Notes: a model not told the origin generated them from the letters alone. 64,000 nucleotides of DNA from a virus (IMGVR_UViG_3300009431_000002:96001-160000); one strand, 5' to 3'; counted from the stretch's first letter, positions 28,099-59,228 are shown. Program-made: numbers and translations.

Positions 28099-28106
28099 GG
28101 CACAAG
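28099..28106 (+). promoter_or_regulatory. Intergenic motif GGCACAAG
   Basis: Immediately upstream of the RBS of 28123; one of six similar intergenic copies. Confidence 0.5.
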
Positions 28107-28122
28107 TGGGTCGGAGGAAACG

Positions 28123-28818
28123 ATGACACAGACCCTATCCAAGAAGGAGGCGGCCGTACATCTGGGCGTCTCCGTGCGCTCTGTCGAGAAGTTCATTCAG
28201 GACGGCCTGCTCCCCAAGTACACCCAGGGGAGGCGTGTGCTGCTCATGGCCGACGATGTCGAGGAACTCCGCGTCGAACGCGAGGAGGCAACGGTCCCGC
28301 TGCTGAACCGGAAGGTCATCGCCGACCTGCGCCGCCGCGTCCGCGTGCTCGAGCACCGCGTCTCCATCGTCCTGAGCATCCATGAGATCTCCGAGCCGCC
28401 ACTCGCCCTCACCGACGAGGACGCACTGCGCGTCTTCACCATGGCCGTGCACGCCGTGGAGCACCCGACCATCGAAGCCTGCACGCGGTGGGCCGCGCTG
28501 CTGCCCCGCATCAACGAGGACGTGCTGGCGCAGATGCAGCGCGTGGCCAAACGGCTCAACCCCGGCGCCACCTTCCTCAAGCTGAGCCTGTCGTTGCAGC
28601 GGCACCTCAAGGAGAACGAGCACTTCGCCACCAGCCTCGAGATGCAGAAGCTCCACGCCCAACTGAGCAACCTCCATCCATTCCTGCGCACCGTCGTCGT
28701 CGCCTTCATCGACATGCAGGAGGGCCTGTCGATCCAGGATCGCGTGAATCTCATCGGCGGGCCCGAGTCCTCCATCGAAGAGGACATCGTCTCCCAGATC
28801 TGCAAGTCCAGCCGCTGA
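28123..28818 (+). CDS. Excisionase/MerR-like helix-turn-helix DNA-binding protein
   Basis: LSKKEAAVHLGVSVRSVEKFIQDGLLP...GRRVLL matches the excisionase-type wHTH pattern; ATG after GGAGG. Confidence 0.8.
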   Translation: MTQTLSKKEAAVHLGVSVRSVEKFIQDGLLPKYTQGRRVLLMADDVEELRVEREEATVPLLNRKVIADLRRRVRVLEHRVSIVLSIHEISEPPLALTDEDALRVFTMAVHAVEHPTIEACTRWAALLPRINEDVLAQMQRVAKRLNPGATFLKLSLSLQRHLKENEHFATSLEMQKLHAQLSNLHPFLRTVVVAFIDMQEGLSIQDRVNLIGGPESSIEEDIVSQICKSSR

Positions 28819-28821
28819 TCC

Positions 28822-28829
28822 GGCACAAG
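28822..28829 (+). promoter_or_regulatory. Intergenic motif GGCACAAG
   Basis: 3 nt after the stop of the HTH gene, upstream of 28962. Confidence 0.45.
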
Positions 28830-28884
28830 GGCGTCAGAACCCCCGCATTTCCGCCCAAAAACCGCAAATATGGCGCGCGGTTAC

Positions 28885-28900
28885 GGGATAAGAAAAGTAG
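28885..28900 (+). promoter_or_regulatory. Intergenic motif GGGATAAGAAAAGTAG
   Basis: 14 of 16 positions identical to GGCATAAGAAAAGCAG at 59213-59228. Confidence 0.55.
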
Positions 28901-28961
28901 CCCGCAGACAGACTGCTCATGCTGTCGGTGGGAAAACTCACCCCACAGAGGAGGTACGATT

Positions 28962-29717: not shown

Positions 29718-29786
29718 CGACCCCGCCACCCACCGTCCTCACAGCGCACCCGCGCCCCGTCCCGGGGCTGCGACGCGAGCGCACCT

Positions 29787-29807
29787 GGAACCACCGCGGT
29801 TCCTCTT
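29787..29807 (+). terminator. Possible weak intrinsic terminator between convergent genes
   Basis: GGAACC-ACCGC-GGTTCC followed by TCTT. Confidence 0.3.
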
Positions 29808-29816
29808 ACCTCGGGA

Positions 29817-31586: not shown

Positions 31587-31612
31587 CGACCCTCCGCTTG
31601 TCAGCCAATCAG

Positions 31613-31642
31613 TTTACACGCCGTAACGTAGGCCTCTACCAT
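31613..31642 (+). promoter_or_regulatory. Sigma70-like promoter TTTACA-N18-TACCAT upstream of parB
   Basis: Hexamers at 31613-31618 and 31637-31642, followed by GAGGAGGAG RBS and ATG at 31658. Confidence 0.45.
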
Positions 31643-31657
31643 ACCCGAGGAGGAGAT

Positions 31658-32674
31658 ATGAAGGTCCAGCTCATTCCACGGGGCGAGATCCGCCTCGACC
31701 TCAACCTGCTGCCCAATCCACGCGAGTGGCACATCCGGGAGGAGTCGGGGTTCGCGCTCCGCATCATCCAGGTCGGCCGCCTCGACCAGCCCATCGACGT
31801 CTGGTTCGACGGCGAGCACTACTACCTGGTCAACGGACTCCGCCGATGGCTCGCCCTGGAGTGGATGGAGGAACACCGCCCCGACGAGTACCACGCCATG
31901 TTCGACGACGGCATCGAGTGCCTCGTCCGGACGGGCGACATCGAGGACGTCATCGTCGCGGCCATCGTGGTCAACGCCGACCGCGAGGAGTACACCCCGC
32001 TCGAGATCGCCAACGCCTGCGAGATCCTGCGCAGCCGGGGCTACGGCAACAAGAAGATCGCTGCCATCGTCAACAAGGACGTCCGCACCGTCCAGCGCGC
32101 CCTGGAGTTCAAGGACAAGACCGACGAGTCCGTCACCGAGCTCGTGCGCGAGGGCGTCCTCAAGTTCAGCGCCGCCTGCGACGTCGTCAAGGCCCCCCGC
32201 AACACGTGGAAGGGACTGCTGGACGAGCTGATGGGCGTGAAGCCGCACATCGACGAGAAGGCCGACCCCAACACCATGCCCCACAAGAAGCGGAAGAAGG
32301 GCCCCAAGGGCAAGACCTCCTCCAAGGAGGCGGGCGCCAAGGAGCTCAACCCGCGGTCGCCGACCCGCCGCAAGAAGCCGGCGCCGAAGAAGGACGGGAT
32401 CACCAAGACCCGGGAGCGCGCCAAGAAGCTGGGCGGCCGAGCCGGCGGCAAGAAGACCATCACCGAGATCCGGTCGCTCGTCGGGGAGACGGAGCAGCAG
32501 CTCAAGCAGCACGAGATCGACGGCAAGGGCCAGATCCTCGAGCCGGACGAGGTGGCGCGTCGGAAGGGCGAGAACGCGGCCGGTGCCATCTCGTACCACT
32601 ACGACAAGGGCAAGCTCGAGGGCATGATCGCGGGCCTCAAGTGGGCGCTGGGTGAGGGCAAAGACGCATCCTGA
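31658..32674 (+). CDS. parB: ParB/Spo0J-family protein with Lys-rich C-terminus
   Basis: QPIDV...YYLVNGLRRWLA (GxRR motif), NADREEYTPLEIANA, HTH GNKKIAAIVNKDVRTVQRAL. Confidence 0.85.
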   Translation: MKVQLIPRGEIRLDLNLLPNPREWHIREESGFALRIIQVGRLDQPIDVWFDGEHYYLVNGLRRWLALEWMEEHRPDEYHAMFDDGIECLVRTGDIEDVIVAAIVVNADREEYTPLEIANACEILRSRGYGNKKIAAIVNKDVRTVQRALEFKDKTDESVTELVREGVLKFSAACDVVKAPRNTWKGLLDELMGVKPHIDEKADPNTMPHKKRKKGPKGKTSSKEAGAKELNPRSPTRRKKPAPKKDGITKTRERAKKLGGRAGGKKTITEIRSLVGETEQQLKQHEIDGKGQILEPDEVARRKGENAAGAISYHYDKGKLEGMIAGLKWALGEGKDAS

Positions 32675-32678
32675 TTCT

Positions 32679-32686
32679 GGCACAAG
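32679..32686 (+). promoter_or_regulatory. Intergenic motif GGCACAAG
   Basis: 4 nt after the parB stop, upstream of 32744. Confidence 0.5.
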
Positions 32687-32743
32687 GGATGTAGTCAACC
32701 ACAGGGGAACAGCCCCAAGCTCACCCATAGGAGGGAATCACAC

Positions 32744-33175: not shown

Positions 33176-33609
33176 CCCGCAGCCGCGACCAGAAGGCTTC
33201 GGCCGGGGGATGCCCCCCGGCCGGGGCCGGCCGTGTGGACCCGTTGTTAGCTCAGAGGCTCGTGTGGGTGGACGACCTCGGCGCGGCGCTGTCCGACGCC
33301 ACCGACAAGGTGGAGCACGTCTTCATCACCGTGGACCCCGTCCGCAAGATGGCGGTCAGAATCGACATGAGGCTATCGGAACCCCTGGAGCCGGGGTCCG
33401 AGAAGCATTTCGCCAACGTGATTCGCGGCTGGGCCGCGGTCAACGACGTGGACGTGCTGAAGGTGACGACACAGTGTCGTCGCGTGTTGGTGGACGCCCA
33501 CGTCAAGTACCTTGGAGGTGGAGAGTGCCGTCACAGTATATGGGATCTGCGCCCAGCCCCGCGAAGCCGCCACCGCTTCGTGCGCATCGGGGACCGCGGA
33601 AGAAAATGA
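33172..33609 (+). CDS. Hypothetical protein, about 145 aa
   Basis: GTGA coupling at 33172-33175 and ATGA coupling with the next gene. Confidence 0.55.
   Translation: MTRSRDQKASAGGCPPAGAGRVDPLLAQRLVWVDDLGAALSDATDKVEHVFITVDPVRKMAVRIDMRLSEPLEPGSEKHFANVIRGWAAVNDVDVLKVTTQCRRVLVDAHVKYLGGGECRHSIWDLRPAPRSRHRFVRIGDRGRK
33465..33481. repeat. Palindrome copy 4 (GACGACACAGTGTCGTC)
   Basis: Inside 33172-33609 (reads TTQCR there), about 0.8 kb downstream of parB. Confidence 0.85.
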
Positions 33610-34229
33610 GAGTCGCCGGCCTGGACGAGGCGGGTGCCGGAGCCCTGGCCGGTCCCGTCATCGCCGCGGCCGCGCTCTACGACGACATGACGTGCCCGTT
33701 CGAGCCGCTCATCGACGGCGAGGGGTACAAGGACAGCAAGCAGCTCACGAAGCTGGCGCGCGAGAAGCTGGTCCCCCAGCTCATCGCTGGCGCCGTGTCC
33801 ATCGGGCTCGGATGGGCGGACCCCGAAGAGGTCGACCGCATGGGCATGCGGGAGGCTCACCTGCTCTGCCTGCGGCGCGCCGTGGGGGATCTGCAGACGC
33901 CGCCGGAGATGCTCTACGTCGACGGCCGCGCCTACGAGCTCAGTGGCCTGCCCTTCCCGCAGCTCGCCGAGAACCGAGCCGATACCATCTACTGGCAGGT
34001 GGCGGCCGCATCGGTCATCGCCAAGACCTACCGCGACGGCATCATGTACGAGCAGCACGCGAAGTACGATGGCTACGGGTTCAACACCAACGTGGGGTAC
34101 GGGTCCAACCAGCACCTCGAGGCTCTGGGCAGGCTCGGCCCGACGCCCATCCACCGCAAGCTGTTCATCCGCAAGCCCATGGCCCGGGCTGGGCAGCAGG
34201 TCCCCCTGTCCCGGAGGTACACCCTGTGA
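33606..34229 (+). CDS. rnhB: Ribonuclease HII
   Basis: MRVAGLDEAGAGALAGPV, KDSKQL, YVDG, VAAASVIAKTYRD, NVGYG...H, GPTPIHR: canonical RNase HII motifs. Confidence 0.93.
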   Translation: MRVAGLDEAGAGALAGPVIAAAALYDDMTCPFEPLIDGEGYKDSKQLTKLAREKLVPQLIAGAVSIGLGWADPEEVDRMGMREAHLLCLRRAVGDLQTPPEMLYVDGRAYELSGLPFPQLAENRADTIYWQVAAASVIAKTYRDGIMYEQHAKYDGYGFNTNVGYGSNQHLEALGRLGPTPIHRKLFIRKPMARAGQQVPLSRRYTL

Positions 34230-39073: not shown

Positions 39074-39074
39074 G

Positions 39075-40052: not shown

Positions 40053-40055
40053 CGT

Positions 40056-45431: not shown

Positions 45432-45438
45432 GTCCTAC

Positions 45439-45861: not shown

Positions 45862-45870
45862 GCGGTCCTC

Positions 45871-46656: not shown

Positions 46657-46664
46657 GCGATCTC

Positions 46665-49600
46665 CTAGTACCCGACGCGGAACTCCGTGGTGCCGGGTGT
46701 TCCTTTCTCAGGCTGCCCGAACTCGGAGCCATAGGCTAGCGCCGGGATCGGATGCAACCCGTGGATGTTGCTGGACCAGCCCCTCAAGGCACCGTCGACG
46801 ATGGTGTCCTTCAGCTTCTGGTACTGGAGCCGCGCCATCCAGTCCTCCTGCATGTCCAGCGGCGTCTGCGTGACCCCGCGCAGGATGGGCGTGAACTTGA
46901 CGGGCTTCTTGCGCTTCTTGTTGTGGTACCCGACATTCGACGTGGACACCAGGTCTCCTGGGAGGAGGTCGGTGTCGCCGGCGTCATCCACTACGCCGAG
47001 GTCGGTGATGGCGCGGACCGCGGTCTCCACGTTGCGCCGGAGCACTGGGCCCGCGTCCGAGTACGCCTTGTGGACCTCGTCCGCGAGGTAGCCGCGCACC
47101 GTGTTGATGTTGGTCAGCGGCAGCATCTCGTGCGGATTGATGGGCCCGCCGGAGAGCCGGTCCCCCTTGCGGACCTTCACGCCCTTGCGCAGCTTGATCT
47201 TCTCGTTGACCAGGTGCTCGGGGACGTAGTGCCTCTTCCCCTTGACCCAGATGTTGAGGCCGCCGACCTCGGCGTCCTTCTCCACCCGCTCTACGGTGCC
47301 CGTGGTCGTCGCCAGCGTCGCCGAGTCCGCCAGCACCTTGGGCATGCGCAGCAGGTCCTGGACCCTGGTGAACTTGTCGGTGGACCGGCCGCTCTTCGAG
47401 GCAGCGACCCCGCCTTCGTGGAACGCGCGCATCGACAACTGCGTGGCGGGCTCGCCCAGTGCCTGCGACGCGATGACCCCGATGTTGGTCCCCGGGTCGG
47501 GCAGCTGGCCGTCCGGCAGGTTGCCGTAGTCCCGTGCGTACAGTCCCTTCGGGGCCACCGACTTCAGCGGGCTGCGGATCGACACGCGCCGGACGCCGCT
47601 GTTCTTCATCCTCGTCTGGACCCGGTCGGTGACCTCGGTGTTCCTCGGCAGGACGTCGCCGCCCCGGAGCTTCACGGGCCGCGCGAGGTAGCGACCGATG
47701 ACCTCGCGGTCCTCGGGGTCCGCGCTGATGCCGTCGTCGGCGTCGTCCGGCGCGTCCCCATCGACCACGACGAGGTTCATGGCAGAGTTCACGACGTCCT
47801 TGGTCAGCGCGCCGGGCTTGGCGGTCTCCTTCGTCTTCTGGATCATGCCCTTGCGCGCACCGTGCATGGCCGTGAAGTAGCTGGCGGAGTCCAGGCCCTC
47901 GGCGTAGCTCTTGGTGATCGGCACCGGCACGATGCGGTCGGCCGCGTCCTTCACCAACATGGGGGCGATGAGGATCTGCCGGACCTGGTCCCAGTTGCCG
48001 CGAGCACCGGCGTTGACCATCTCCAGGGCGTGGTTGCCCTGCCGCTCCAACTTCGGACGGATGGCCCGGCTCAGGTCCTCGGTGGCCTTGGAGTAGAGGT
48101 CGACGAGGCGCTGGTCCTTCTCCTCCTGGGTCAGCGACTTCATCTTCTGGATGCGCTTGGCCGCCTTGTGGACCCCAGCCAGGGCGCGGTCGCGCACAGC
48201 CTGCTGCGCCTGGAAGTCGTCGAGGGTGAACGACGCGCCAGACTCGTAGGCGTAGTCGTTGCCCATGTCCTTGAGGTCGTTGACGACGTCGCCGAAGTCG
48301 GCCGAGTGCTCCTTGGCCATCCGGGTGAGGAGGTCCTTGGTCGGGCCCTTGGACATCCGGAAGTCCTTGGAGTGGAGCAGCTGCGCGTCCCCTCGCATCC
48401 CCTCCGGCAGCACGCGGTCGAGGAGGATGCGACCGAGGGTCGTCTCCCTGCCCTTCACCGAGACCACGTCGGTCATGCCGAGGCCGAGCTTGCGGGCCTT
48501 GGCCGCCACCTGCGCCGGCGAGTCGAAGCGGTGCGACGTCTTCTTCCCCCACTCTGTCAGCCGGTACAGCCCGAGCTGGGCCTCGTGGCCCGGGGAGTAC
48601 ATCACCCGGCCGGTGGTGGTGTTGAACAGGTTGTTGGACGGGAAGAGCTTGCGCGCCTCCTCCACCGCCTCCTTGGCGAGCGGAACGTAGGCGGACATCT
48701 GGTCGCCGTCGAAGTCGGCGTTGTACCCCGAGGTCACCAGGGGGTGGATGCGGATGGCCTTGCCGCCGACGAGCTTGGGCTTGAACGCCATGACCCCGAA
48801 CTTGTGGAGCACCGGGTCACGCTTCAGCAGCACCGGCCGCTCCTCCATCACGCGCTCAAGCGCGTGCCGGGCGACCTTGGAGTTGGTCCGGACCAGGTGC
48901 TGTGCCTCGGCGGGGACGTAGCCCTGCTCCCGCACCAGCTTTCGCACGACGAAGGGCTTGTACGTCTCCTTCGCCAGCTTGTAGGGGATGCCCACCTCGT
49001 CCAGTCCCATGTCGGGCTCGGGGATGATGGTGGACCGCATCGACAGGTCCTGCCGGCGGGAGACGAGGTTCTTCTGGAAGAACGAGTCCTTGGGCTGGGG
49101 CACGCCCTTCATCGTCTCCATCACGCCGCGGTGCTTGCGGCCGTTGATGGTGGAGCCGGTCATCATCAGGGCGCGGAGCCCGTCGTAGAGCTCGGCGGTC
49201 AGCTTGCTCTTCGTCTTCTCCCCGAGTCCGGGGTCGTAGTCCCGCAGCTGGATGTTGGTGATGCCGAGGCTCTTGTACAGGCCGTTGATGTCCGAGTCGT
49301 TGAGCTTGCCCGACTCCATCACCGAGACCGGCCGCATCACCGGCGGCATGACGGGCACGACCGAGGTGAAGTACGCCTGGTCGGGGGTCAGGTCGTTGGC
49401 GACCAGCGCCTCGAGGAACCGGATCTGCTTGCGCAGCTTCGCCATCGTCGACACGGCCTTGGTGGTCTCGGCCTGGCGACGGAGCGTCTCCAGCTGCTGC
49501 CGTGGGTCGATGGCCGCCAGCCGTGCGCGGATGGCTTCGGGCCCGGTCTTCCCGTCGAGCGTCTTCTCGCCGGCGATGACGGCCTGGTAGTCCTTGTTCT

Positions 49601-52600
49601 TCAGCCCCGTGAAGGTGAGGATGGCCTTCTCGAACACCGGGTTCGGCATGGGCTCGGCCAGCCGGATGTGGGACCAGCGCTTGCCGTCCACACCGCCCGT
49701 GGCGTAGGGGTCGAACAGCCCGCCGCGCTCCGGCTTGAGGTCCTTGCCCCGGAACATCAGGCCCGGGTCCTTCAGTTCGCCGCTGGACATCCGCAGGATC
49801 TGCTCGTCGGTGAGGGGCGCGAGGTTCAGGGTCGAGCCCTGCTTCTTGACGTCGACGCCCAGCACGTTGAGGTAGCCGTTGAACTTGTCGAAGGCGAACG
49901 AGGTGGACGGCGGTGGGAGCTGCTCCCCAGTCTGCAGGGCCATCCACAGCTCGGGGTTCTTCTGGCTCTTGTAGGTGGCCATCTCCCGGATGTTGGCCTT
50001 CGCTCCATGAGCCAACATGGCGTACATGCCCAACGCGTCCATGGCCTGGGCGCCGTGGGCACCACCGCCCTTCGGAACCTCGTTGACGCTGTACGCGTAC
50101 CCGGCCCCGCCCGCGCGGGCGTGGGACTTCTTGTCGATCTGGTGCTTGAGCTTGAGGATGTACTGGTCGCCCGTGAGGATCGGCCCCAGGCTCTGCCCGG
50201 ACTTGGGGTCCACCAGCTCCTCGGTGTCGGACAGGCCCTCCTTCGCCAGCTCCGCCTTCATCTCCTTGGCGTAGTTGCGGTTGGCCCCGCCGAAGTTGTT
50301 GGTGACGTACCGCTTGCCCCGCTTCCGGGCGATCTTCCCGGCCATCGTCTCGAGGACCTGGCCGAGGTTGATGCGGCCGGGGATGCCAGCCGGGTTGAGC
50401 AGGACCTCGACCGGGGCGCCCTCTTCGCCAGAGGCGCGCGGCATCTCGTGGTCAGGCAGCACCGCCGTGACGATGCCCTTGTTGCCGTGGCGTCCGACCA
50501 GCTTGTCCCCGACGCGGGCAGGCTCCTCGGTGGCGACGTGGACGCTGACGTCCTTGCCCCGCTTGACGACGCGGACCACCCGGCCCTTCGTGTCCTTGTC
50601 CCAGACGATGGGCTTGGGGTCCATGTCCCGCACGAGGCTCTTGTGCAGCCGCGCCCGCATGCGACGCTCGCTGGTCTGCTCCGGCTTCTTCAGCGCGGCG
50701 ACGAGGATGTCCCCCTCGTTGACCTCCTGCCCCACCTGGATGACGCCGTCGTCGTCGAGCTTGTCGTAGACCTCGCGCTGCACGCGGTCGGGTGGCGCGT
50801 ACGCGCGGAACTTCTTCTTGTCCAGGACCGTGTTCTTGGTCAGCCGCATGCTCTTGCGGTGCATGTGCTGGGACTTGAGCTTCTCGGCCGCGGACTCGGA
50901 GACGACGATGCCGTCCTCGAAGTTGTACCCACGGTACGGGATGTAGGCCACCCGGAGGTTCTTGCCCAGCGCGAGCTTGCCTTCGCGCGTGAAGTTGGTG
51001 TCGGCCACCGTCTGGCCGCGCTTGACCTTGTCCCCCTTCTTCACGAGGGGCTCGGAGTGCAGGACGCTGGACGCCTCGTTGAGCGGGAAGTGGTCGTAGA
51101 GCTGGACCTCCTCCAGCTTCCCGGCCTTGCTCCGGATCTTGATGGCGCCGGGCCTCACCGACACCACGGTGCCTTCCACCGGGGACTCGTGGGAGTTGAA
51201 CTGGCCCAGCACGTCCTCGAAGGTGGACCTCACCTCGGTCTTGGACTGCACCAGCGGCTCGTCGCGGTCCACCAGGGGCACGGCCTGCTCCTGCTGCCGG
51301 GACGCCGTCATGGCCCTGTTGCCCTGGTTGTTCTGCAGGAAGGGCACGAGGTTGGTGGCCATGCTGAACAGGCCCTTGGCCGACGGGAGGATGTAGTCCA
51401 CCTCGCTGGCCGGCACCTGCATCACCTCGCCGCCCGGGCCGCTGACCGTCACCTCCTTACCGATGGGGACGAGCCGGTTCTTCACCTTCTTGTACTGGTC
51501 TGGGAAGGCGACGGTGGAGCGGTGCGCCTTGTGCGGATCGATCTTCTCCCGGCGGCCCGTCTTCGTGTTGTAGGCCTGGATGTAGAGGGTCTTGCCCTTC
51601 CGCGACACCCCCAGCGGGAGCTGGAGGGTGATGCCGGTGCGGTCACCCTCCGGGGTGTGGATGGGGTCGAGGAAGCCGAGGTGCGTCGGGTCGATGAGCT
51701 GGTCGGCGTCGGTCAGGGTGTGGGTGCTCTTGACCCCGCCCTCGCCCATGATGGTGGTCTTGGACTGGCCGGAGATGAACTCCAGCGGGTTGACCTGGTC
51801 GGGCATCTGCGACAGCTGGGTCTGGGTGAAGAAGGTCTTGATGGGCTTGTCGAACAGCCCGGGGGTCACGACCTCCCTGACGTCGGCCTTGCGGTCGATG
51901 TTGTTCTCCATCTTCCGCTGCAGATCCCAACGGCCGCGGGTCAGCCGCTCGGCCACGAAGTCGTCGACCGACAACGCGTCCTTGTAGAACAGGTGCTCAC
52001 GCGCGTCCGGGGTGTCCTCGCCCCTCGAGATCCGCGCGAGCTTGTGGGCCGAGGCCAGGAGCGACGGGCCGCTCACCTTGTCGTAGGCCTTGCCCAGGGT
52101 GATCTTCGTGCTGTCGGGGCGCAGCACGGTCGTGCCGAACTCATCTCGGAGGTGGCGCTCGGCGTCCTCGATGCTGGGTGCCTGCTTGCCCGTCGACGCC
52201 TTGTAGAAGGCGCGCATGGCGACGTCGTGCTTCTCCTTCTTCCCCTGGTTGAGGATCCCGCGGCCCAGCTCGCGCTCGATGGTGTCGTCGTCGACCCCCA
52301 GCACCTTGAGCATCGGGTAGAGCGGGATGTGGGAGTTGCCGTACCGGACCAGGAACCGCCGGTCCTCCGGGTGGAACCGGAGCCGGAAGTTCTTGCCTTT
52401 CGCCATGTTCCACTGGGACTCCAGCTCACCCTTGGCGCTGACGCGGTGGTACACCCCAGCCTTCAACCGGAACTGGTTGTCGACCTGGTACTCCTTGCCG
52501 TCGACGATGTAGGAGTGCCGCTTGGTCACGCGGGGCAGGTTGCCCACGCGCATGGACTTGCGGCTGATGACCTTGCCCGTCTCCTTGTTGACCAGGGAGA

Positions 52601-52811
52601 CGTCGGCCATAACAGGGTCAGCCCAAGTCCTGCCCTTGAGCTTCGCGTCCTGCTGGGACCGGATGTCGTCGATGCCCTTCTTGTCGTCGACCCAGACCCG
52701 GTGGAGCTCCAGCCGGTTCTCTCGCCCCTCGAAGGGGAACATCGACGAGATGGCGTCGCTGACACGGTCTTTGAGGGCACCGTAGGAACCCTCTGGGTTC
52801 AGTGTCGCCAT
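46665..52811 (-). CDS. rpoBC: Single-chain fused beta-beta' multisubunit-type RNA polymerase, 2048 aa
   Basis: Beta motifs GDKLVGRHGNKG, LNPAGIPGRINLGQVLE, ILKLKH; beta' motifs KPERGGLF, PVMPPVMRP, LLKRDPVLH, YNADFDGDQM (catalytic), HGARKG (bridge helix), SQALGEPATQLSMRAFH (trigger loop). Confidence 0.97.
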   Translation of the reverse strand: MATLNPEGSYGALKDRVSDAISSMFPFEGRENRLELHRVWVDDKKGIDDIRSQQDAKLKGRTWADPVMADVSLVNKETGKVISRKSMRVGNLPRVTKRHSYIVDGKEYQVDNQFRLKAGVYHRVSAKGELESQWNMAKGKNFRLRFHPEDRRFLVRYGNSHIPLYPMLKVLGVDDDTIERELGRGILNQGKKEKHDVAMRAFYKASTGKQAPSIEDAERHLRDEFGTTVLRPDSTKITLGKAYDKVSGPSLLASAHKLARISRGEDTPDAREHLFYKDALSVDDFVAERLTRGRWDLQRKMENNIDRKADVREVVTPGLFDKPIKTFFTQTQLSQMPDQVNPLEFISGQSKTTIMGEGGVKSTHTLTDADQLIDPTHLGFLDPIHTPEGDRTGITLQLPLGVSRKGKTLYIQAYNTKTGRREKIDPHKAHRSTVAFPDQYKKVKNRLVPIGKEVTVSGPGGEVMQVPASEVDYILPSAKGLFSMATNLVPFLQNNQGNRAMTASRQQEQAVPLVDRDEPLVQSKTEVRSTFEDVLGQFNSHESPVEGTVVSVRPGAIKIRSKAGKLEEVQLYDHFPLNEASSVLHSEPLVKKGDKVKRGQTVADTNFTREGKLALGKNLRVAYIPYRGYNFEDGIVVSESAAEKLKSQHMHRKSMRLTKNTVLDKKKFRAYAPPDRVQREVYDKLDDDGVIQVGQEVNEGDILVAALKKPEQTSERRMRARLHKSLVRDMDPKPIVWDKDTKGRVVRVVKRGKDVSVHVATEEPARVGDKLVGRHGNKGIVTAVLPDHEMPRASGEEGAPVEVLLNPAGIPGRINLGQVLETMAGKIARKRGKRYVTNNFGGANRNYAKEMKAELAKEGLSDTEELVDPKSGQSLGPILTGDQYILKLKHQIDKKSHARAGGAGYAYSVNEVPKGGGAHGAQAMDALGMYAMLAHGAKANIREMATYKSQKNPELWMALQTGEQLPPPSTSFAFDKFNGYLNVLGVDVKKQGSTLNLAPLTDEQILRMSSGELKDPGLMFRGKDLKPERGGLFDPYATGGVDGKRWSHIRLAEPMPNPVFEKAILTFTGLKNKDYQAVIAGEKTLDGKTGPEAIRARLAAIDPRQQLETLRRQAETTKAVSTMAKLRKQIRFLEALVANDLTPDQAYFTSVVPVMPPVMRPVSVMESGKLNDSDINGLYKSLGITNIQLRDYDPGLGEKTKSKLTAELYDGLRALMMTGSTINGRKHRGVMETMKGVPQPKDSFFQKNLVSRRQDLSMRSTIIPEPDMGLDEVGIPYKLAKETYKPFVVRKLVREQGYVPAEAQHLVRTNSKVARHALERVMEERPVLLKRDPVLHKFGVMAFKPKLVGGKAIRIHPLVTSGYNADFDGDQMSAYVPLAKEAVEEARKLFPSNNLFNTTTGRVMYSPGHEAQLGLYRLTEWGKKTSHRFDSPAQVAAKARKLGLGMTDVVSVKGRETTLGRILLDRVLPEGMRGDAQLLHSKDFRMSKGPTKDLLTRMAKEHSADFGDVVNDLKDMGNDYAYESGASFTLDDFQAQQAVRDRALAGVHKAAKRIQKMKSLTQEEKDQRLVDLYSKATEDLSRAIRPKLERQGNHALEMVNAGARGNWDQVRQILIAPMLVKDAADRIVPVPITKSYAEGLDSASYFTAMHGARKGMIQKTKETAKPGALTKDVVNSAMNLVVVDGDAPDDADDGISADPEDREVIGRYLARPVKLRGGDVLPRNTEVTDRVQTRMKNSGVRRVSIRSPLKSVAPKGLYARDYGNLPDGQLPDPGTNIGVIASQALGEPATQLSMRAFHEGGVAASKSGRSTDKFTRVQDLLRMPKVLADSATLATTTGTVERVEKDAEVGGLNIWVKGKRHYVPEHLVNEKIKLRKGVKVRKGDRLSGGPINPHEMLPLTNINTVRGYLADEVHKAYSDAGPVLRRNVETAVRAITDLGVVDDAGDTDLLPGDLVSTSNVGYHNKKRKKPVKFTPILRGVTQTPLDMQEDWMARLQYQKLKDTIVDGALRGWSSNIHGLHPIPALAYGSEFGQPEKGTPGTTEFRVGY

Positions 52812-52832
52812 GGAACGTCCAGTTGTGCCATC

Positions 52833-52861
52833 AGGCTACAGTGCAAGGGATGCTGTGGCAA
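52833..52861 (-). promoter_or_regulatory. Sigma70-like promoter TTGCCA-N17-TAGCCT upstream of the RNAP gene
   Basis: Plus-strand TGGCAA at 52856-52861 and AGGCTA at 52833-52838. Confidence 0.45.
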
Positions 52862-52863
52862 CG

Positions 52864-52871
52864 GGTACAAG
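52864..52871 (+). promoter_or_regulatory. Intergenic motif GGTACAAG
   Basis: Upstream of the RBS (GAGGAGG) of 52901. Confidence 0.45.
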
Positions 52872-52900
52872 TAGAGTAACCAACAGAGGAGGTCTGCTGC

Positions 52901-53107
52901 ATGATTGAAATCGTACCCACCGAAGACCACACCCTCGACGATCTGGACGACGAGCCCATCGTGCTCGCCGGCCCGGGCGATGACGAGGATGACAACGATG
53001 ACGAAGAGGAGGACAATGAGGAGGAGGTCGACGAGGACCGGGAGGACCGGACGAGTCCAGAGATCCTCGACGACGCCGTCGATGAGGCGATCTACGGCGA
53101 GGAGTAG
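52901..53107 (+). CDS. Small highly acidic protein, 68 aa
   Basis: Strong RBS; D/E tract DDEDDNDDEEEDNEEEVDED. Confidence 0.7.
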   Translation: MIEIVPTEDHTLDDLDDEPIVLAGPGDDEDDNDDEEEDNEEEVDEDREDRTSPEILDDAVDEAIYGEE

Positions 53108-53109
53108 CC

Positions 53110-53211
53110 ATGTTCTGGACGCTGGTGGGCGTCGGCCTGTTCCTGGGGCTGATGCTGTACATGAGACATTCGAGCGGGGACTTCGTGGCCTCGATGACCC
53201 GCTCGACCTGA
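53110..53211 (+). CDS. Putative 33-aa membrane peptide
   Basis: My translation MFWTLVGVGLFLGLMLYMRHSSGDFVASMTRST; ATG after GAGGAG. Confidence 0.5.
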   Translation: MFWTLVGVGLFLGLMLYMRHSSGDFVASMTRST

Positions 53212-53630
53212 CCGCCGACGACGCGGCGCCCGACGCTACGTTCGCACTGGCGTACTGCACCCTGCTCGCCCACGACATCATCGCTGAGGCGTTGGACGGG
53301 GACCCCGAGGACTGGCCCGACTACATCCAGCTGTGCTGCGACGAAGTGAACTGCGCCGAGTGCGCGCTCCTCGCCGGCTTCCTGGAGGGTTCCGAGTTCT
53401 CGTGGGTCTGCGCCACCTGCGCCACCGCCTTCCCACACCACATCGGCTTCTGGATCTCGGGGACCTGCGACGCCTGCGACGGCGTCGTCACAACAGGTAC
53501 ACGCCGCTCCCCCGTCGTCACGACCGACGACGACCACGCCGAGTCCTGCGTCCTTCAACTGATCGAGGAGCAGCCGGTCCTCCGCGACCGGCTCCGCCGG
53601 ATGCAAGCACTGGTGGAGCGGCATGCGTAG
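53208..53630 (+). CDS. Cys-rich hypothetical protein (start uncertain; possibly CTG)
   Basis: CCDEVNCAEC, CATC, CDAC in the native-looking part of the open frame; CTGA overlap with the upstream stop. Confidence 0.5.
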   Translation: MTADDAAPDATFALAYCTLLAHDIIAEALDGDPEDWPDYIQLCCDEVNCAECALLAGFLEGSEFSWVCATCATAFPHHIGFWISGTCDACDGVVTTGTRRSPVVTTDDDHAESCVLQLIEEQPVLRDRLRRMQALVERHA

Positions 53631-53928
53631 GGCGCTACGATTCAGCGACCTCACGCGCCGCGCCAAGGAGGACCGAGAGGAGGCCCTCCGCCAGGACGAC
53701 GCCGGCGAACCACGAGTCATCTGCGACTACTGCGACCAGCCAATCGTGCCCGGAGAGGTCGGCTTCGCCATCCAGCAATTCGAGGTGGTGGTGAGCAACA
53801 AGTCCGGGCGCGACGTCTACCAGGACATCCACATGGAGGACGGGTCCTCCGAGAAGTGCTACCACTTCACGTGTCTCGCCGAGCACATCACCCAGCCGTG
53901 CATCATCGGAGCCGAGCATGAAATGTGA
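53623..53928 (+). CDS. Small zinc-finger protein (CxxC...HxxC)
   Basis: ICDYCDQP...CYHFTCL. Confidence 0.7.
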   Translation: MRRALRFSDLTRRAKEDREEALRQDDAGEPRVICDYCDQPIVPGEVGFAIQQFEVVVSNKSGRDVYQDIHMEDGSSEKCYHFTCLAEHITQPCIIGAEHEM

Positions 53929-54187
53929 CTGGTGCGACTGCGAGTTCGAGCCCGATGAGGAGGCCATGCTGGTCATCGAGGGGCAGATGACCCTCTCCCC
54001 CAAGTCCGAGCGCCTGGTGCTGGGCAAGGAGATGACCCCCAAGTACTTCCACAAGGCCTGCCTCTACGAGGTGGCCATGCACGCGATGGAGCTCGACGAC
54101 GAGTACCTCGCCCAGGTCGGCGCCAACGTGCGCGAGATGCTGGAGGAGGAACTGCGCGAGAAGATCTACGACGAGCTGACTGCCTGA
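53918..54187 (+). CDS. Small zinc-finger protein (CxxC...HxxC), paralog of 53623-53928
   Basis: KCDWCDCE...YFHKACL. Confidence 0.7.
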   Translation: MKCDWCDCEFEPDEEAMLVIEGQMTLSPKSERLVLGKEMTPKYFHKACLYEVAMHAMELDDEYLAQVGANVREMLEEELREKIYDELTA

Positions 54188-54202
54188 CGACACAGTGTCG
54201 TC
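54186..54202. repeat. Palindrome copy 6 (GACGACACAGTGTCGTC)
   Basis: Begins at the stop of 53918-54187, just before the terminator. Confidence 0.85.
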
Positions 54203-54208
54203 GACGCC

Positions 54209-54232
54209 GAGTGGGGGCCGCCCCACTCTTTT
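54209..54232 (+). terminator. Intrinsic terminator
   Basis: GAGTGGGG-GCCG-CCCCACTC followed by TTTT, between convergent genes. Confidence 0.85.
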
Positions 54233-54241
54233 AGATCGGGA

Positions 54242-56239
54242 TCAGACGACCGCCCGCTCGAGGGGCCGGCGCGGGGGCTTCTGCTCGGGGAGGGGCTGCT
54301 GAAGCGGATTCAGCGTGTCTCGCTGGCCTCCATCGCCCTCGCTCAGCAGGGCCTGGACCATGCGGTAGATGTCGGGGCTGCCCATCCGCAGCTTCTGCAT
54401 GGCCTGCGGGAACATGGCCGGCTGCTCGTCCTGGATCCGGCGCATCTCCGTGGCGATGCGTCGCGCGACGAAGCGGACGTCGACCATCTCGTTGCCGCCG
54501 GTCATCTGCCCCATGTGCATGGGGGACTGGACCTCCTGCGGGAGGTTGTCGACGTACACGGCCGCGCCGTCCGGCACACCCGGACCGATCTGCTCGCCGC
54601 GCATGACCGATGGCTGGGTCTGCGGCAGCTCGGCGTAGGACGGCGGGGACTCCGGCGGCTGCTGCATCTGCATCTGCATGTGCTGGGCCTGGATCTCGTA
54701 GCGGAGGGCCGCCAGCTGGGCCTCCCCCTGCGCCGCGGCCTGGGCCACCACCATCTCGCGGTTGGCTGCCACCTGCTTGACCAGCTCCTGCTTCTTCCGC
54801 TTCTCCTCGGTCTCCAAGTCCTCGCCGAGCTCGCGGAGGAACGTGGTGTCGGAGATCTTCATGGCCTGGTTCGCCTGGAAGTAGACCATCAGCCTCTGCA
54901 GGTCGTCGGCCATCTTGAACCGCTCGAACCGGATGGGCACCCTCGGCCAGCCGAGGAACTCGCAGATGCGGCCCATGACGAAGTCGCCAACCAGCCGGAG
55001 TTGGTCGTCGCGGTACCCACTGAACTGGTTCTCGAGGATGCGCATCGACACGTTGGTGCCGGTGTACTGCATGCCACCGAAGATGAACTCGATGGGCACG
55101 TTCATGCCCGCGATGATCTGCTCGCTCCAGACCCGCAGCTCCTGGTGGAGGATGAGCGCCCGTCCCTGGCCGCCGATCATCTCGTGGCCGAGTGGGATGG
55201 GCATCAGCGGGATGTAGTTGGGGTCCTGGCGCCAGCGAGCGATCTCCTCCTGGACCTGGTCCTTCCACTCCCCGAGGTTGATCATCGTGATGGGGTCGCC
55301 GGTCTGCCCGTTGGCCTGCGGGTACAGCACGCGCAGCGGGACGATGTGCTCCTGGGCGATCATCTCCTGGCCCTTGCGCAGGACCTGCAGGTAGAAGATG
55401 TCCTTGAGCACGGGCAGGACCAGCGGCATGCCCCAGCCCTGGTCCTTCTGGGCGATGATGGGCCGCTTGAGGTGGAACAGCGTGCCCGGCGCGAACTTCA
55501 CCGACTTCTTCTTCCGCATCGCCTCGATGAAGGTGTCGGGCACCGTCTCGATGACGTTGCGGCGGCCGATGGTGATGGCGTTCTTCAGCTTCTGCGGCAG
55601 CTTGTAGAAGTAGGTCGGGTCGGTGACGCCCTCGTTGTCGTCGATCTCCACCCGCTCCGGGTCCCACCGGACCAGCCGGATGCCCTTGGCCGTCCGCATG
55701 GCCTCGTCGTGGACCTCGGCCGGCCGGCGCTCCCCGCACTCGGGGCAGGTCAGGTAGTAGACCATCTCCTGGTAGCGGTAGTGCCTGCGGAGCTTGTCGA
55801 TGGGCGCCTTGTGGCCGCAGTGACGGCACTTGAGGTGCTTGACGAAGGGGAAGTGCACCGTGACGAAGGCGTTGCCGTAGTTGTAGTAGTCCAGCCCCAC
55901 CTCGATCTGGAACTTGCGGACCTGGAGCTGGTCCTCGAAGAGGTGGCGGTACCGCTCTCGGACGTCCTTGTCGTCGGCCTCGTAGATGATCTTGGTGATG
56001 GGGTACTCGGCCAGCTTGTACACGACCGCGTTGATGAGCGGGTTCGTGAAGAAGAAGTACCGGCACCACTGCAGCATCTGCTTGAGGCGCGCGGGGAAGT
56101 ACGTCTGGGCGGCGTCGAAGAACGGGTTGGGGTACCGCACCCCGGTCCGCTGCATGCTCGAGCCGAGCGTGACGGGCGTGCGGGAGAAGCGGGTCAGCCC
56201 GTCACCGTAGGAGACGCCGGTGTACCCGAGGCCTGGCAT
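54242..56239 (-). CDS. Portal protein with zinc-ribbon insertion, 665 aa
   Basis: NPLINAVVYKLAEYPIT, GLDYYNYGNAFV, GWGMPLVLPVLK are portal-like; insertion CRHC...CPEC; Q/M/P-rich C-terminal tail. Confidence 0.85.
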   Translation of the reverse strand: MPGLGYTGVSYGDGLTRFSRTPVTLGSSMQRTGVRYPNPFFDAAQTYFPARLKQMLQWCRYFFFTNPLINAVVYKLAEYPITKIIYEADDKDVRERYRHLFEDQLQVRKFQIEVGLDYYNYGNAFVTVHFPFVKHLKCRHCGHKAPIDKLRRHYRYQEMVYYLTCPECGERRPAEVHDEAMRTAKGIRLVRWDPERVEIDDNEGVTDPTYFYKLPQKLKNAITIGRRNVIETVPDTFIEAMRKKKSVKFAPGTLFHLKRPIIAQKDQGWGMPLVLPVLKDIFYLQVLRKGQEMIAQEHIVPLRVLYPQANGQTGDPITMINLGEWKDQVQEEIARWRQDPNYIPLMPIPLGHEMIGGQGRALILHQELRVWSEQIIAGMNVPIEFIFGGMQYTGTNVSMRILENQFSGYRDDQLRLVGDFVMGRICEFLGWPRVPIRFERFKMADDLQRLMVYFQANQAMKISDTTFLRELGEDLETEEKRKKQELVKQVAANREMVVAQAAAQGEAQLAALRYEIQAQHMQMQMQQPPESPPSYAELPQTQPSVMRGEQIGPGVPDGAAVYVDNLPQEVQSPMHMGQMTGGNEMVDVRFVARRIATEMRRIQDEQPAMFPQAMQKLRMGSPDIYRMVQALLSEGDGGQRDTLNPLQQPLPEQKPPRRPLERAVV

Positions 56240-57178
56240 CTACGCCCTCCTCTCGGCCGAAGGCGCGAAGAGCGTGGTGCTGGGCGTCGTCGCCCCCGAG
56301 GGCGTGGGCGGCGGCCGCAGGGACTGCTGCCTGCGCTTGTGGTAGCCCAGCAGCTTGTCGATGCCCTTGCCCAGCGTGCCCATCGACCTGGAGCCGACCT
56401 CCCAGCCCGCGATGGATCCCCCGAAGCCGGTGGGCATCCCCGCGACCATGCCGGCGTGACCGCCGAGGTGCTGCAGCGCTCGTTCTGCGTGGCCCCGCGG
56501 CTTCCCGCCACCGAAGGCGTGCGGGTCGTCGCGCTTGACGATGTGAGGGGAGAAGGCTCCGCCGAAGCCCGCCAGCATGGACTTGCCTCCCACCGGCGCG
56601 TACTTGGTCAGCTCGCCGGACCCAGTCCAGCCGCGGCGCGACAGCTCCTCAGCCAGCTCACGAGGCCGGGTCGCCACGTCACGGAGCCGCTGCGACTCGT
56701 CGAAGAGGTGACTCGTCTCGGCGTGGGGCCGCACGGCCTTGGCTTGCTCCCCCATCGCGCGCCGAGTGCCCGAGCCGCCGGCCCACTCCGGTGCGTACCA
56801 CCTGTAGGCGCCCTCGGCCTTCCGGGTCTCCTTCATACCCTCCTGCAGCGCCTTGTGCGCGGCGGGGTCACCCCTGACGGCCTGCATGATGTCCTCGGGC
56901 AGGCCCTTGGTCTTGGCGTAGCTGGCCCAGTCGTCGAACCCGGCCCGGCGGGCCTCGAGCATCAGCCGCTGCGTGGCCCCCTCCACCGGGCTGAGGTGCT
57001 CCCAGCCCCGACGAAGGATCTGTCCCGTGCGGCGCGGGTCGAAGGTCTTGGCGGCGGTGGCGGTGCCGTGCGCCGCGGAGGTGAGCTGGTTGAGGAGGAA
57101 GCGAAGCGGGTTGGCCTGCTTCTCCAGCTCGTCCTCGAACGCATCCAGTCGAGCTGGCGTCAGGGCGCGAGAAGCCAT
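56240..57178 (-). CDS. Tagged glycine-zipper protein, about 312 aa
   Basis: RLDAFEDELEKQA near the N-terminus; two hydrophobic Gly-rich segments near the C-terminus; no Cys seen. Confidence 0.65.
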   Translation of the reverse strand: MASRALTPARLDAFEDELEKQANPLRFLLNQLTSAAHGTATAAKTFDPRRTGQILRRGWEHLSPVEGATQRLMLEARRAGFDDWASYAKTKGLPEDIMQAVRGDPAAHKALQEGMKETRKAEGAYRWYAPEWAGGSGTRRAMGEQAKAVRPHAETSHLFDESQRLRDVATRPRELAEELSRRGWTGSGELTKYAPVGGKSMLAGFGGAFSPHIVKRDDPHAFGGGKPRGHAERALQHLGGHAGMVAGMPTGFGGSIAGWEVGSRSMGTLGKGIDKLLGYHKRRQQSLRPPPTPSGATTPSTTLFAPSAERRA

Positions 57179-58041
57179 GGCCGCATCATCTCCATCTGTT
57201 GGGCCAGCTGGCGCCGGCGCAGCTTCATGTACTCCCGCGCCCGCAACACTCTGGCCACGCATCGATCCACCTGGGTCTCCCCCAGATCTACTTGGTCCAG
57301 GCCCTTACCGGCAACTGATTCGTACCGCTCCTTGACCGGCCGGTAGTCGTTGATGAAGTAGCGCTCGACCTTCCCGTGCCCCAGCTTCTTCGCCGGCGAG
57401 TCCGCCGTGGGCTTGCCATCGAGGTTGTGCTCACCTCGGAAGCGCTTGGCGCAGACGTCACACGTGTCGTCCTCGAGGTCGTCCTCGTCCTCGTTGCCGC
57501 AGCTGGTACACCTGTACATCGGCCGCGCGGCCAGCCGCTGTGCGAAGTCCAACGGCGGCGGGAGGAACCACACGCCGTCCGACAGCGCGGCCGCGGCGAC
57601 GAACCGGGCCACCTCGTCCGAGAACTTCCGGCCGTCCACACTCTCCATCATGTCCACGCCGGCCGCCAGCGCGTCGAAGGAGGGCTGCTGGATGATGTCG
57701 AACCTCGGGATGTTGTTGTTCAGCGCCTGGATGGTGGGGACGAAGGCGTCCCAGCTGATCCAGCAGGCGTCCGTGGCGTGCAGCGTCTTCACCGCCATGA
57801 TCTTGTTGCGGTTCAGCTCGCTGATCTCCAGCTGTCCACCGCCGAGCAGAGCCTGCCCGAAGTACCGCTTGATGCCGTCCCACACAGCCTCCGGCACCCA
57901 CTCCCACCAGTCCTTCCCGAAGGCGGTGACGATGACGGCGTCGAGGACCAAGGGGTGTGCGTCGTGGTGGCGAAAGAGCGTGGCTGGCCGAATGTCGTCC
58001 GGCTGGGTGGTCAAAGCGGTGGCCGGGGACGCATCAGCCAT
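57160..58041 (-). CDS. Hypothetical virion-module protein with CxxC...CxxC motif
   Basis: RCTSCG...TCDVC; overlaps neighbours in the operon. Confidence 0.7.
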   Translation of the reverse strand: MADASPATALTTQPDDIRPATLFRHHDAHPLVLDAVIVTAFGKDWWEWVPEAVWDGIKRYFGQALLGGGQLEISELNRNKIMAVKTLHATDACWISWDAFVPTIQALNNNIPRFDIIQQPSFDALAAGVDMMESVDGRKFSDEVARFVAAAALSDGVWFLPPPLDFAQRLAARPMYRCTSCGNEDEDDLEDDTCDVCAKRFRGEHNLDGKPTADSPAKKLGHGKVERYFINDYRPVKERYESVAGKGLDQVDLGETQVDRCVARVLRAREYMKLRRRQLAQQMEMMRPWLLAP

Positions 58042-59128
58042 GCGCAATCGTCTGCATGCCGACAGGGCTGTGGCCCGTGTCCGAGGCCAGCCGGGCGAGC
58101 GTGACCTTGTTGATGTCGGGCAGCGACTTGAACACGGAGACGGGGTCCTTGGCGAACTGCGTGGCGAAGTCGTCGCCGAAGTGGTCCTTGAGCAGCTGCC
58201 GATTGGCAGACAGGAGCCGCAGGTCGGCCTCGGTCACGCGCTCGGCGCCCTCCACCCACACGAAGTCCTCGGCGGTCTTCTCGAAGCAGGTGGAGACGGG
58301 GTCCAGCACGTGCTGGTCCCAGAGGTGGTCGAGGCCCGTCTGCTCGTCGAACAGCGTCAGGGCCGTGGCGAGCTTCTCGGGGTTGGCGCGTTCGTCGCCG
58401 GCGGACTTCACGAGGACGTCGAGCACCGGGTGCATGCTGGCCGGCACGTACTGGCGCCGCGCCTCGATGTACATACCGGCGTCGGGAGCGAGCGCGGTGC
58501 CGGCGTACTTCTCGATGTCGTGCGATGGCACGGGGATCCCCAGGTCGGCGGCGCGGGACGCCAGCTTCGTGGCGAACTCGCGGCGGTCGTTGGGATGGAA
58601 GCGCAGCATGTTCTCCCGGAAGAAGCCCATGCCGGCGGCGACCTCCTCGTAGGAGCGCAGCGGGTACTTGCCGAGGGCCACGCAGTCCGCTTCGGCCAGC
58701 TTCTCCTGCTCCATCACCGGCGCAGTGGCCAGCACGGAGTCCACGACCTCGGCCGTCTTCACGCCATCGGCGGTGAGGGCCAGCCCGATCTTCACCAGAT
58801 CCAGCGGGACCTGCATCTGGTGGGCCTCGTGGGCGTCGATCAGGTTGTTCACGACCTGCAGCTGGGCCTCCTTGGACAGGTGGCCCCGCTGGGACAGGAA
58901 GTAATGGGCGGACATCCATGTATTGCCGGGGTCGATGGTGGCATACTTGCAGAACAGGTTGCCGTCGACGGACGCGACGAGCGCGAAGTTCTTGGCCGGC
59001 AGAGCCTGACGCTCCTCGGGAGACAGGAAGGCTGCCGTCTTGGCCATGTCGGGGAGTTGGTCCTGGGGGACGGTACTGGCGAGCAGCGCCGCCTGGTCGT
59101 CATAGACGTCGAGGATCAATCCAGACAT
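58034..59128 (-). CDS. K-x-A-rich head-module protein, 364 aa (first gene of the portal operon)
   Basis: AKTAA, VKTAE, EKLAE, VKSAG, EKLAT, EKTAE; AGGAG RBS. Confidence 0.7.
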   Translation of the reverse strand: MSGLILDVYDDQAALLASTVPQDQLPDMAKTAAFLSPEERQALPAKNFALVASVDGNLFCKYATIDPGNTWMSAHYFLSQRGHLSKEAQLQVVNNLIDAHEAHQMQVPLDLVKIGLALTADGVKTAEVVDSVLATAPVMEQEKLAEADCVALGKYPLRSYEEVAAGMGFFRENMLRFHPNDRREFATKLASRAADLGIPVPSHDIEKYAGTALAPDAGMYIEARRQYVPASMHPVLDVLVKSAGDERANPEKLATALTLFDEQTGLDHLWDQHVLDPVSTCFEKTAEDFVWVEGAERVTEADLRLLSANRQLLKDHFGDDFATQFAKDPVSVFKSLPDINKVTLARLASDTGHSPVGMQTIAHG

Positions 59129-59160
59129 GGAGACTCCTGTGAATGAGGCGGTCCAGTGGA

Positions 59161-59190
59161 ATCGTAGGCCCCTGCGCGCACGCGAGTCAA
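59161..59190 (-). promoter_or_regulatory. Sigma70-like promoter TTGACT-N18-TACGAT for the portal operon
   Basis: Plus-strand AGTCAA at 59185-59190 and ATCGTA at 59161-59166. Confidence 0.7.
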
Positions 59191-59212
59191 GTGCAACGTC
59201 TCCCGGGAAGCC

Positions 59213-59228
59213 GGCATAAGAAAAGCAG
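59213..59228 (+). promoter_or_regulatory. Intergenic motif GGCATAAGAAAAGCAG
   Basis: Upstream of the replication operon starting at 59259; near-identical to 28885-28900. Confidence 0.55.

Follow-up and report, generated by a model that had tools for sequence, protein, structure and literature searches.

The window analysed here, a stretch of 64,000 nucleotides (nt), comprises bases 96001–160000 of the single 201,921-bp viral contig IMGVR_UViG_3300009431_000002, which represents an uncultured phage of 67% GC. Its intergenic DNA carries a recurrent octamer, GGnAyAAG, which we examine as the core of a candidate phage-specific promoter. Gene calling with a custom codon-usage model gave 249 open reading frames (ORFs) and a non-coding share of 6.2%; 22 tRNAs all lie within the first 20 kb of the genome. 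The + strand encodes DNA polymerase A, primase, three helicases, RecA, UDG, RNase HII, an AAA ATPase and many small ORFs, and the - strand encodes capsid, portal, terminase and other structural homologs, an RNA polymerase (RNAP) with a Snf2-type helicase, a sigma factor and most of the tRNAs.

The RNAP is a 2048-residue protein that unites beta (Rpb2_6, 7e-64) and beta' (Rpb1_2, Rpb1_5) domains in one chain, and its gene is the sole multisubunit-type RNAP gene in the genome. The sigma70-family protein (229 residues; genome 201197–201886, - strand) matches Sigma70_r3 above cut-off (39.8 bits) and region 2 weakly, and carries a helix-turn-helix (HTH) at its C-terminus. It also aligns to structures of RpoS/RpoD, and these features make it a candidate cognate factor with regions 2-3-4. 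The RpoD, SigBFG and FliA models all score about 1e-10 on it, far below their own cut-offs, and we therefore leave it without a subgroup assignment. Searches of the genome for a second sigma returned weak region-4-like HTH matches below cut-off. At the right end of the contig the sigma frame is still open (ORF 201197–201921, - strand), and the ORF cut at the left end (1–905, - strand) runs off in another frame. Because ORFs are cut at both ends, the record is either not quite complete or was arbitrarily opened.

The six + strand intergenic copies of the octamer listed by the initial annotation are all present (promoters 1 to 6 in Table 1), as is the match at 14 of 16 positions that it described, between the copies at 28885 (GGGATAAGAAAAGTAG) and 59213 (GGCATAAGAAAAGCAG). 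Taken alone, the 8-nt core is about twofold enriched in the window, with 14 matches against 6.3 ± 2.3 in shuffles, none of which gave 14. The 8 other window matches all lie inside coding sequences, as had been cautioned, and are codon-driven, since all 8 share one codon phase (nGG-GAC/TAC-AAG). The predicted intergenic enrichment was borne out genome-wide: 21 of the 34 + strand copies fall in the intergenic 6.2% (binomial p 2e-17), and all 9 - strand copies lie outside intergenic DNA. Over the whole genome, the + strand has 26 copies of the two-part form nG(C/A)AAn-N13-16-GGnAyAAG and the - strand has one, against 2.0 expected from 20 Markov shuffles (highest shuffle, 5).

The genome was also scanned with a 15-column matrix at cut-offs of 9 and 12 bits, and 28 sites were curated. 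The 12-bit cut-off recovered 26 of the 28 on the + strand, 23 of them intergenic, and gave one intergenic match on the - strand; at 9 bits, intergenic matches numbered 27 on + and 2 on -. Sites are present in 20 of the 33 + strand upstream gaps, and the gaps without one are mostly tRNA units, doubtful small ORFs and operon-internal gaps. A dispersed repeat or mobile element was ruled out, as there is no conservation outside two boxes and a start-site step.

Alignment of the sites resolves the core as GG-n-A-(T/C)-A-A-G, often followed by GG. A -35-like box, (c/g)G(C/A)AA(a/t), that is GCAAA or GCGAAA, lies 13–16 nt before the GG in 21/28 sites, compared with 1.6% of random positions. When nAyAAG is taken as the -10 hexamer, the box-to-hexamer spacer is 15–18 nt. 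Counted from the first G, position +13 is a pyrimidine and position +14 a purine, each in 27/28 sites, and this purine, the predicted start, is 7 nt past the final G of the -10 box. Predicted leaders have a median of 24 nt to the start codon and measure 10–29 nt in 19/28 cases. The spacer and the position of the purine correspond to the geometry of a sigma70-family promoter. Information content is near zero outside the two boxes. The conserved part consists of two short boxes, not of one block of about 20 bp through +1 as in T7-type promoters. We conclude from this sequence evidence that the GGnAyAAG sites are almost certainly promoters.

The octamer had been called non-sigma70. This is correct in that the sites are distinct from the housekeeping consensus: the final -10 base is G, and not T, in 28/28 sites, the -35 box is GCAAA/GCGAAA and not TTGACA-like, so group 1 housekeeping features are absent, and a sigma70 scan calls none of the six window sites. 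It does not extend to the family, for the two-box build is that of sigma70-family promoters and the genome encodes a sigma70-family protein. A sigma54 reading was also considered and rejected: the likeness goes no further than a GGCAC in some copies, a -12 GC is not conserved, and positions +10 to +12 past the GG hold 0.1–0.2 bit. An extra ATTAGC box, which could be an UP-like element or a regulator site, stands just upstream of or overlaps the -35-like box at genome positions 10890, 62692, 70075, 72234 and 91022.

Within the window, the sites head non-virion + strand units (Table 1), which supports the earlier proposal of a separate promoter class. The - strand units carry host-like TTGACA-N17/18-TAnnnT promoters: the form TTGACn-N16-19-(T/C/G)AnnnT occurs 9 times on the - strand and never on the + strand in intergenic DNA. 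The consensus scan missed the promoter at 28047..28076 because its last -10 base is C. The -10 region of the RNAP gene is conserved in relatives as TCTGnTAGyyT. An extended -10 box of the type TGnTAnnnT/CTGTAG, in place of a -35 box, was seen in - strand upstream regions at genome 12507, 14066, 18621, 148811 and 1759; it is common to several - strand and tRNA units, and the sequences suggest that these units form a sub-class of housekeeping-type promoters. As had been noted, the parB upstream region lacks the motif, with a best matrix score of -4.1 bits against 12–19 bits at real sites. Alone among the + strand genes of the window, parB has a host-type promoter in place of the motif; the -10 hexamer of this promoter recurs unchanged in two - strand promoters (genome 44703 and 57931).

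Table 1. Predicted promoters and associated features of the window (window coordinates).
Feature	Position	Strand	Elements	Score (bits)	Unit served or remark
Promoter 1	28078..28113	+	GGCAAA 28078-28083, 15-nt spacer, GGCACAAG 28099-28106, predicted start 28113		HTH_17 gene (+), ATG 28123
Promoter 2	28801..28836	+	TGCAAG 28801-28806, 15-nt spacer, GGCACAAG 28822-28829, predicted start 28836	15.5	Gene from 28962 (+); upstream member of tandem pair
Promoter 3	28863..28899	+	CGCAAA 28863-28868, 16-nt spacer, GGGATAAG 28885-28892, predicted start 28899	15.4	Gene from 28962 (+), 63 nt downstream
Promoter 4	32657..32693	+	GGCAAA 32657-32662, 16-nt spacer, GGCACAAG 32679-32686, predicted start 32693	17.8	Operon from 32744 (+), includes RNase HII 33606-34229
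Promoter 5	52842..52878	+	TGCAAG 52842-52847, 16-nt spacer, GGTACAAG 52864-52871, predicted start 52878	14.6	Small-gene operon 52901-54187 (+); orthologous site kept in relatives
Promoter 6	59192..59227	+	TGCAAC 59192-59197, 15-nt spacer, GGCATAAG 59213-59220, predicted start 59227	16.6	Long replication operon (+): helicase, UDG; primase, DNA pol A and RecA beyond window; ortholog in relative L007 (position 3672) laid out alike
Intrinsic terminator	54209..54228	+	8-bp GC-rich stem, then TTTT		Closes promoter 5 unit
Divergent host-type promoter	28047..28076	-	TTGACA-N18-TATAAC, read by eye		Virion block, first gene 27109-28017
Candidate RNAP-gene promoter	52833..52861	-	TTGCCA-N17-TAGCCT		-35 box 52856-52861 inside promoter 5 spacer
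Divergent host-type promoter	59161..59190	-	TTGACT-N18-TACGAT, sigma70 scan		Block 54242-59128 with portal homolog
parB host-type promoter	31613..31642	+	TTTACA-N18-TACCAT		parB ATG 31658
Single-chain beta-beta' RNAP gene	46665..52811	-			2048 residues; candidate core enzyme for motif promoters

The 665-residue protein encoded at 54242–56239 (- strand) has no PHROG match, yet it is a clear homolog of gp204, the portal protein of Salmonella phage Arash (E 3e-79). Portal and RNAP genes adjoin in both phages; here the small + strand operon of promoter 5, with its own promoter and terminator, sits between them. The second gene of the replication operon (59645–60043, + strand) shows a weak sigma-region-4-like HTH (Sigma70_r4, E 0.008, below cut-off) and may encode a small transcription regulator made from a phage-type promoter.

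The promoter extends well beyond this genome. Homologs of the single-chain RNAP are present in about 295 viral contigs, and the same promoter was found in relatives with RNAP identities of 42–67% and GC contents of 35–67%, on the strand opposite the RNAP gene. Comparison of the RNAP-upstream regions, anchored on the -10 box, showed that a copy is kept at the orthologous site just upstream of the relatives' RNAP gene. Counted over both strands, relative G003 has 7 matches against 0.9 expected (5 sites opposite the RNAP gene), G002 (GC 50%) has 18 against 5.9, including 13 copies of tGCAAA-N15-GGTATAAG on one strand, the one opposite the RNAP gene, and G001 has 12 against 3.9, with 7 good sites opposite the RNAP gene. 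The motif was not found in more distant relatives with RNAP identity of 36% or less. A single-sequence search of viral contigs with the sigma gave no match; genome-wise protein searches detected sigma homologs in 5 of 7 nearly complete RNAP-bearing genomes. In G001 (42% identity), a copy of GGCATAAG lies at about 5620–5646 (- strand), some 17 nt before the ATG of the sigma gene, a sequence arrangement that hints at positive autoregulation of sigma in that phage.

Among cultured phages, a nucleotide search with the RNAP gene gave no match, and relatives were found at the protein level only. The best phage matches of RNAP and sigma were Arash and three Vibrio phages; the best match of the sigma is Arash Gp10, and the RNAP is an ortholog of Arash gp206/gp216. 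Arash (OQ632216.1) shares 17 detectable proteins with this phage at an identity of only about 30%, and the strand partition is kept in all 17: the 13 encoded on our - strand (terminase, portal, capsid, structural proteins, RNAP, helicase and sigma) are all on the Arash + strand, and the 4 on our + strand are all on the Arash - strand. The - strand of Arash carries 30 copies of GGTATAAG and its + strand a single one, where 2.8 would be expected. Copies lie about 25–35 nt before the starts of ribonucleotide reductase, kinase, polymerase, primase, ligase and small genes, an upstream box occupies the same place (consensus tcCA.AA; CAATAA in the clearest copies), and the step recurs, with T at +13 in 26/30 and a purine at +14 in 30/30. 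Because this promoter word is kept between a Salmonella phage and an uncultured phage of 67% GC, the specificity factor is expected to be carried by the phage, and the phage sigma, the ortholog of Arash Gp10, is the likely candidate.

Arash also differs from the present phage. Its RNAP is split over two genes, compared with one chain here, and it has a second sigma (gp196) that has no homolog here and is absent from the Arash virion table. Its structural strand uses cTAAAATA, as opposed to TTGACA/TAnnnT here. This element, which resembles the T4 late promoter, stands about 25–35 nt before the ATG, for example of gp2, gp185, gp204, gp212, gp216, gp218 and gp241, and often abuts cttatacCCTAAAATA, the reverse complement of the early -10 box. 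Early and late promoters thus appear to be interlocked in Arash too.

The Arash genome paper (Yousefi et al. 2023, PMC10585845) never mentions promoters, yet it bears on which enzyme reads them. Liquid chromatography–mass spectrometry of Arash virions lists RNAP Gp206, with the highest spectral count, Gp216, the sigma Gp10 (100% coverage) and the helicase Gp217, and the authors suggest a role in early transcription (PMC10585845). The initial annotation had proposed a packaged RNAP as the reader of the motif; the presence of RNAP, sigma and helicase orthologs in the Arash virion proteome supports this indirectly (PMC10585845). The pairing of sigma with the phage RNAP was also addressed by complex prediction, in which sigma and RNAP residues 1040–1420, the clamp-helix region, reached an ipSAE of 0.55, compared with 0.05 for the best control, with at least 32% of contacts agreeing between runs and a partner pLDDT of at least 64. 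Among solved complexes, 58 of 80 attained the ipSAE mark, as did 2 of the 110 mismatched pairs; only 7 of those 80 did so with a score of 0.60 or under, a range that also holds both of the passing mismatches. As sigma and the beta' clamp helices are a solved textbook pair, the result may be due to likeness alone; the model gives weak support to an association of sigma with the clamp-helix region of the phage RNAP.

On balance we favour the interpretation that the + strand units, with their replication, recombination and nucleotide-handling genes and small-gene cassettes, have a bipartite, sigma-type promoter class of their own, read by the phage sigma, probably on a phage RNAP delivered with the virion. 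RNAP, sigma and helicase would be made together with the structural genes, packaged and injected. The injected enzyme would transcribe the + strand early and middle units from the motif promoters, and the - strand virion, RNAP, sigma and tRNA units would be read from housekeeping-type promoters. At the interlocked promoters (28.1, 52.8 and 59.2 kb), a holoenzyme bound to one promoter would be expected to shut out the other holoenzyme. This scheme, in which RNAP and sigma are made late, packaged and injected so that the early and middle promoters are active without host RNAP, we regard as evenly poised between right and wrong.

Several observations weigh against the interpretation we favour. 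No recognisable -35-like box is present in 7/28 sites, and every start site, here and in Arash, is predicted from sequence. G006, one of the more distant relatives, encodes a sigma (29% identity) yet has no such motif. Vibrio phage D69 likewise has a sigma ortholog, yet the strict word is not enriched in it; a strand-biased TTATAAGA variant is all that was seen, and it was not significant by the control. The Arash virion list runs to 116 proteins, including ribonucleotide reductases, and its authors allow for carry-over of abundant proteins (PMC10585845). The complex prediction cannot separate a phage core from a host core. The - strand TTGACA boxes are near-perfect, so host RNAP should fire at once, which is a poor fit to a late class and, together with the predicted status of all starts, is the main weakness. 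Finally, as the sigma frame is open to the contig end, the sigma gene's own promoter lies beyond it, and how sigma is first made cannot be read from this record.

The best-placed alternative keeps both the promoter and the phage sigma and changes the core enzyme. Sigma, made after infection from a host-type promoter, would redirect the host core, as in the sigma-appropriation cascades of SPO1 or T4, and the phage RNAP would serve some other purpose. The RNAP gene and all - strand units do carry housekeeping-type promoters, reviews describe phage sigmas as working with the host core (PMC7824862, PMC7598289), and no gene for an RNAP alpha subunit was found in the phage genome. However, sigma and the single-chain RNAP co-occur through the lineage, both are in the Arash virion proteome (PMC10585845), and the sigma gene lies within a structural-gene operon in Arash and in this phage, an odd place for an early regulator. 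The promoter is moreover conserved across hosts as unlike as Salmonella and the unknown host of a 67% GC phage. We consider redirection of the host core unlikely.

A host-encoded sigma, whether alternative or of unusual housekeeping specificity, could instead read the sites and leave the phage sigma without a role. The hexamer nAyAAG matches TATAAT at up to 5/6 positions and the spacing is standard, but the G that ends every one of the 28 boxes stands where housekeeping sigmas require T, and the same genome has a separate canonical promoter class. The consensus is also common to relatives of 35–67% GC and to a Salmonella phage, implying that the specificity factor travels with the phage, and we judge a host sigma very unlikely.

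The initial annotation had also raised an activator site, based on the 22 nt that separate the divergent -35 box from the GG at 28099 and 59213. This distance is exact at both places (TGTCAA 28071–28076 and AGTCAA 59185–59190), and the first gene after 28099 encodes an HTH_17 protein, so that an operator or activator site coupling divergent promoters and bound by a phage HTH protein could be envisaged. The 22 nt are, however, explained by the + promoter's own -35 box (28078–28083 and 59192–59197), which stands 1–2 nt from the divergent -35 (1 nt between them at promoters 1 and 6), plus the 15-nt spacer. The spacing, of the -61 type, occurs at these two copies only; a divergent -35 adjoins 3/28 copies, and the other 25 lie in co-directional + strand contexts with none alongside. 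Since the layout is not general, the motif is not an activator site; conservation of the pyrimidine-purine step, like the constant distance to start codons, speaks for initiation rather than factor binding, which makes such a regulatory site highly improbable. A physical coupling of the two promoter classes is real at three window junctions and at genome 27.2 kb, and the back-to-back layout is kept at the orthologous junction of the 67%-identity relative (L007, position 3672), but it is not a general property of the sites. More improbable still is an RNA-level motif, a processing site or translation-enhancing leader in polycistronic transcripts, as several copies in short gaps (57–69 nt) between co-directional genes, about 20–25 nt before the ribosome-binding site, might suggest, because other copies head units with no upstream co-directional transcript (genome 10391, 27265 and 87708; window 28099, 52864 and 59213), the upstream box at a variable spacing of 13–16 nt is a DNA-recognition feature, and no conserved RNA structure is apparent.

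The division of labour proposed for the phage-read promoters is the same as that of coliphage N4, which uses an injected virion RNAP for early genes and the host sigma70 RNAP for late genes. The virion enzyme of N4 belongs to the T7-like, single-subunit class and recognises hairpins in the DNA; neither such an enzyme nor a hairpin promoter was found here, with the limit that the search for a T7-type RNAP (PF00940), which had no match in this genome, gave none in control genomes either and is uninformative. The promoter also recalls the sigma cascades of SPO1 and T4 and the group 3 sigmas, in which a phage- or condition-specific sigma has its own -35/-10 pair, as here. The classical phage sigmas SPO1 gp28 and gp33/34 and T4 gp55 act on the host core and are not known to be virion components. 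Group 3 sigmas have regions 2, 3 and 4, as does the phage sigma, and the promoters of sigma28/sigmaF type, of which sigma28 recognises TAAA-N15-GCCGATAA, resemble the one described here in their A-rich -35, gap of about 15 nt and G-rich start of the -10.

The RNAP-encoding jumbo phages of the phiKZ/AR9 type differ as well. Each of their virion-RNAP early promoters is one AT-rich element, some 10 nt long and close to -10, whereas the promoter here is bipartite, and their RNAPs comprise 4–5 polypeptides with no sigma homolog, compared with one chain and a sigma70-family protein here (PMC7598289). With a bipartite promoter, a one-chain RNAP, a sigma, and packaging known for the Arash orthologs only, the present system is not of their promoter type. 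Reviews divide large phages into those that encode RNAP without sigma and those that encode sigma without RNAP (PMC7824862, PMC7598289, PMC13282480). The lineage from Arash to the present phage has both, against this two-way division; the Arash paper shows the combination and goes no further. Our literature search for GGTATAAG returned primer sequences and no description of this promoter, and for fused RNAP with sigma in phages the Arash genome paper was all that our search turned up.

What is new here is a lineage promoter defined by consensus, spacing and predicted starts. As it is common to a cultured Salmonella phage, it is directly testable with ordinary assays. We tentatively propose, with slightly more doubt than conviction, that the lineage from Arash to this phage packages a complete bacterial-type holoenzyme and that infection starts at a private bipartite promoter, CAAA-N15-GGTATAAG, interlocked with the virion-gene promoters. 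If this is true, two polymerases would compete at shared interlocked sites, and the lineage would use a sigma-dependent virion RNAP, a kind of enzyme whose existence current reviews of jumbo-phage transcription deny. The promoter lets transcription units and early and late classes be read off many uncultured genomes of the group, and it may provide an orthogonal sigma/promoter pair for use in hosts that differ widely in GC.

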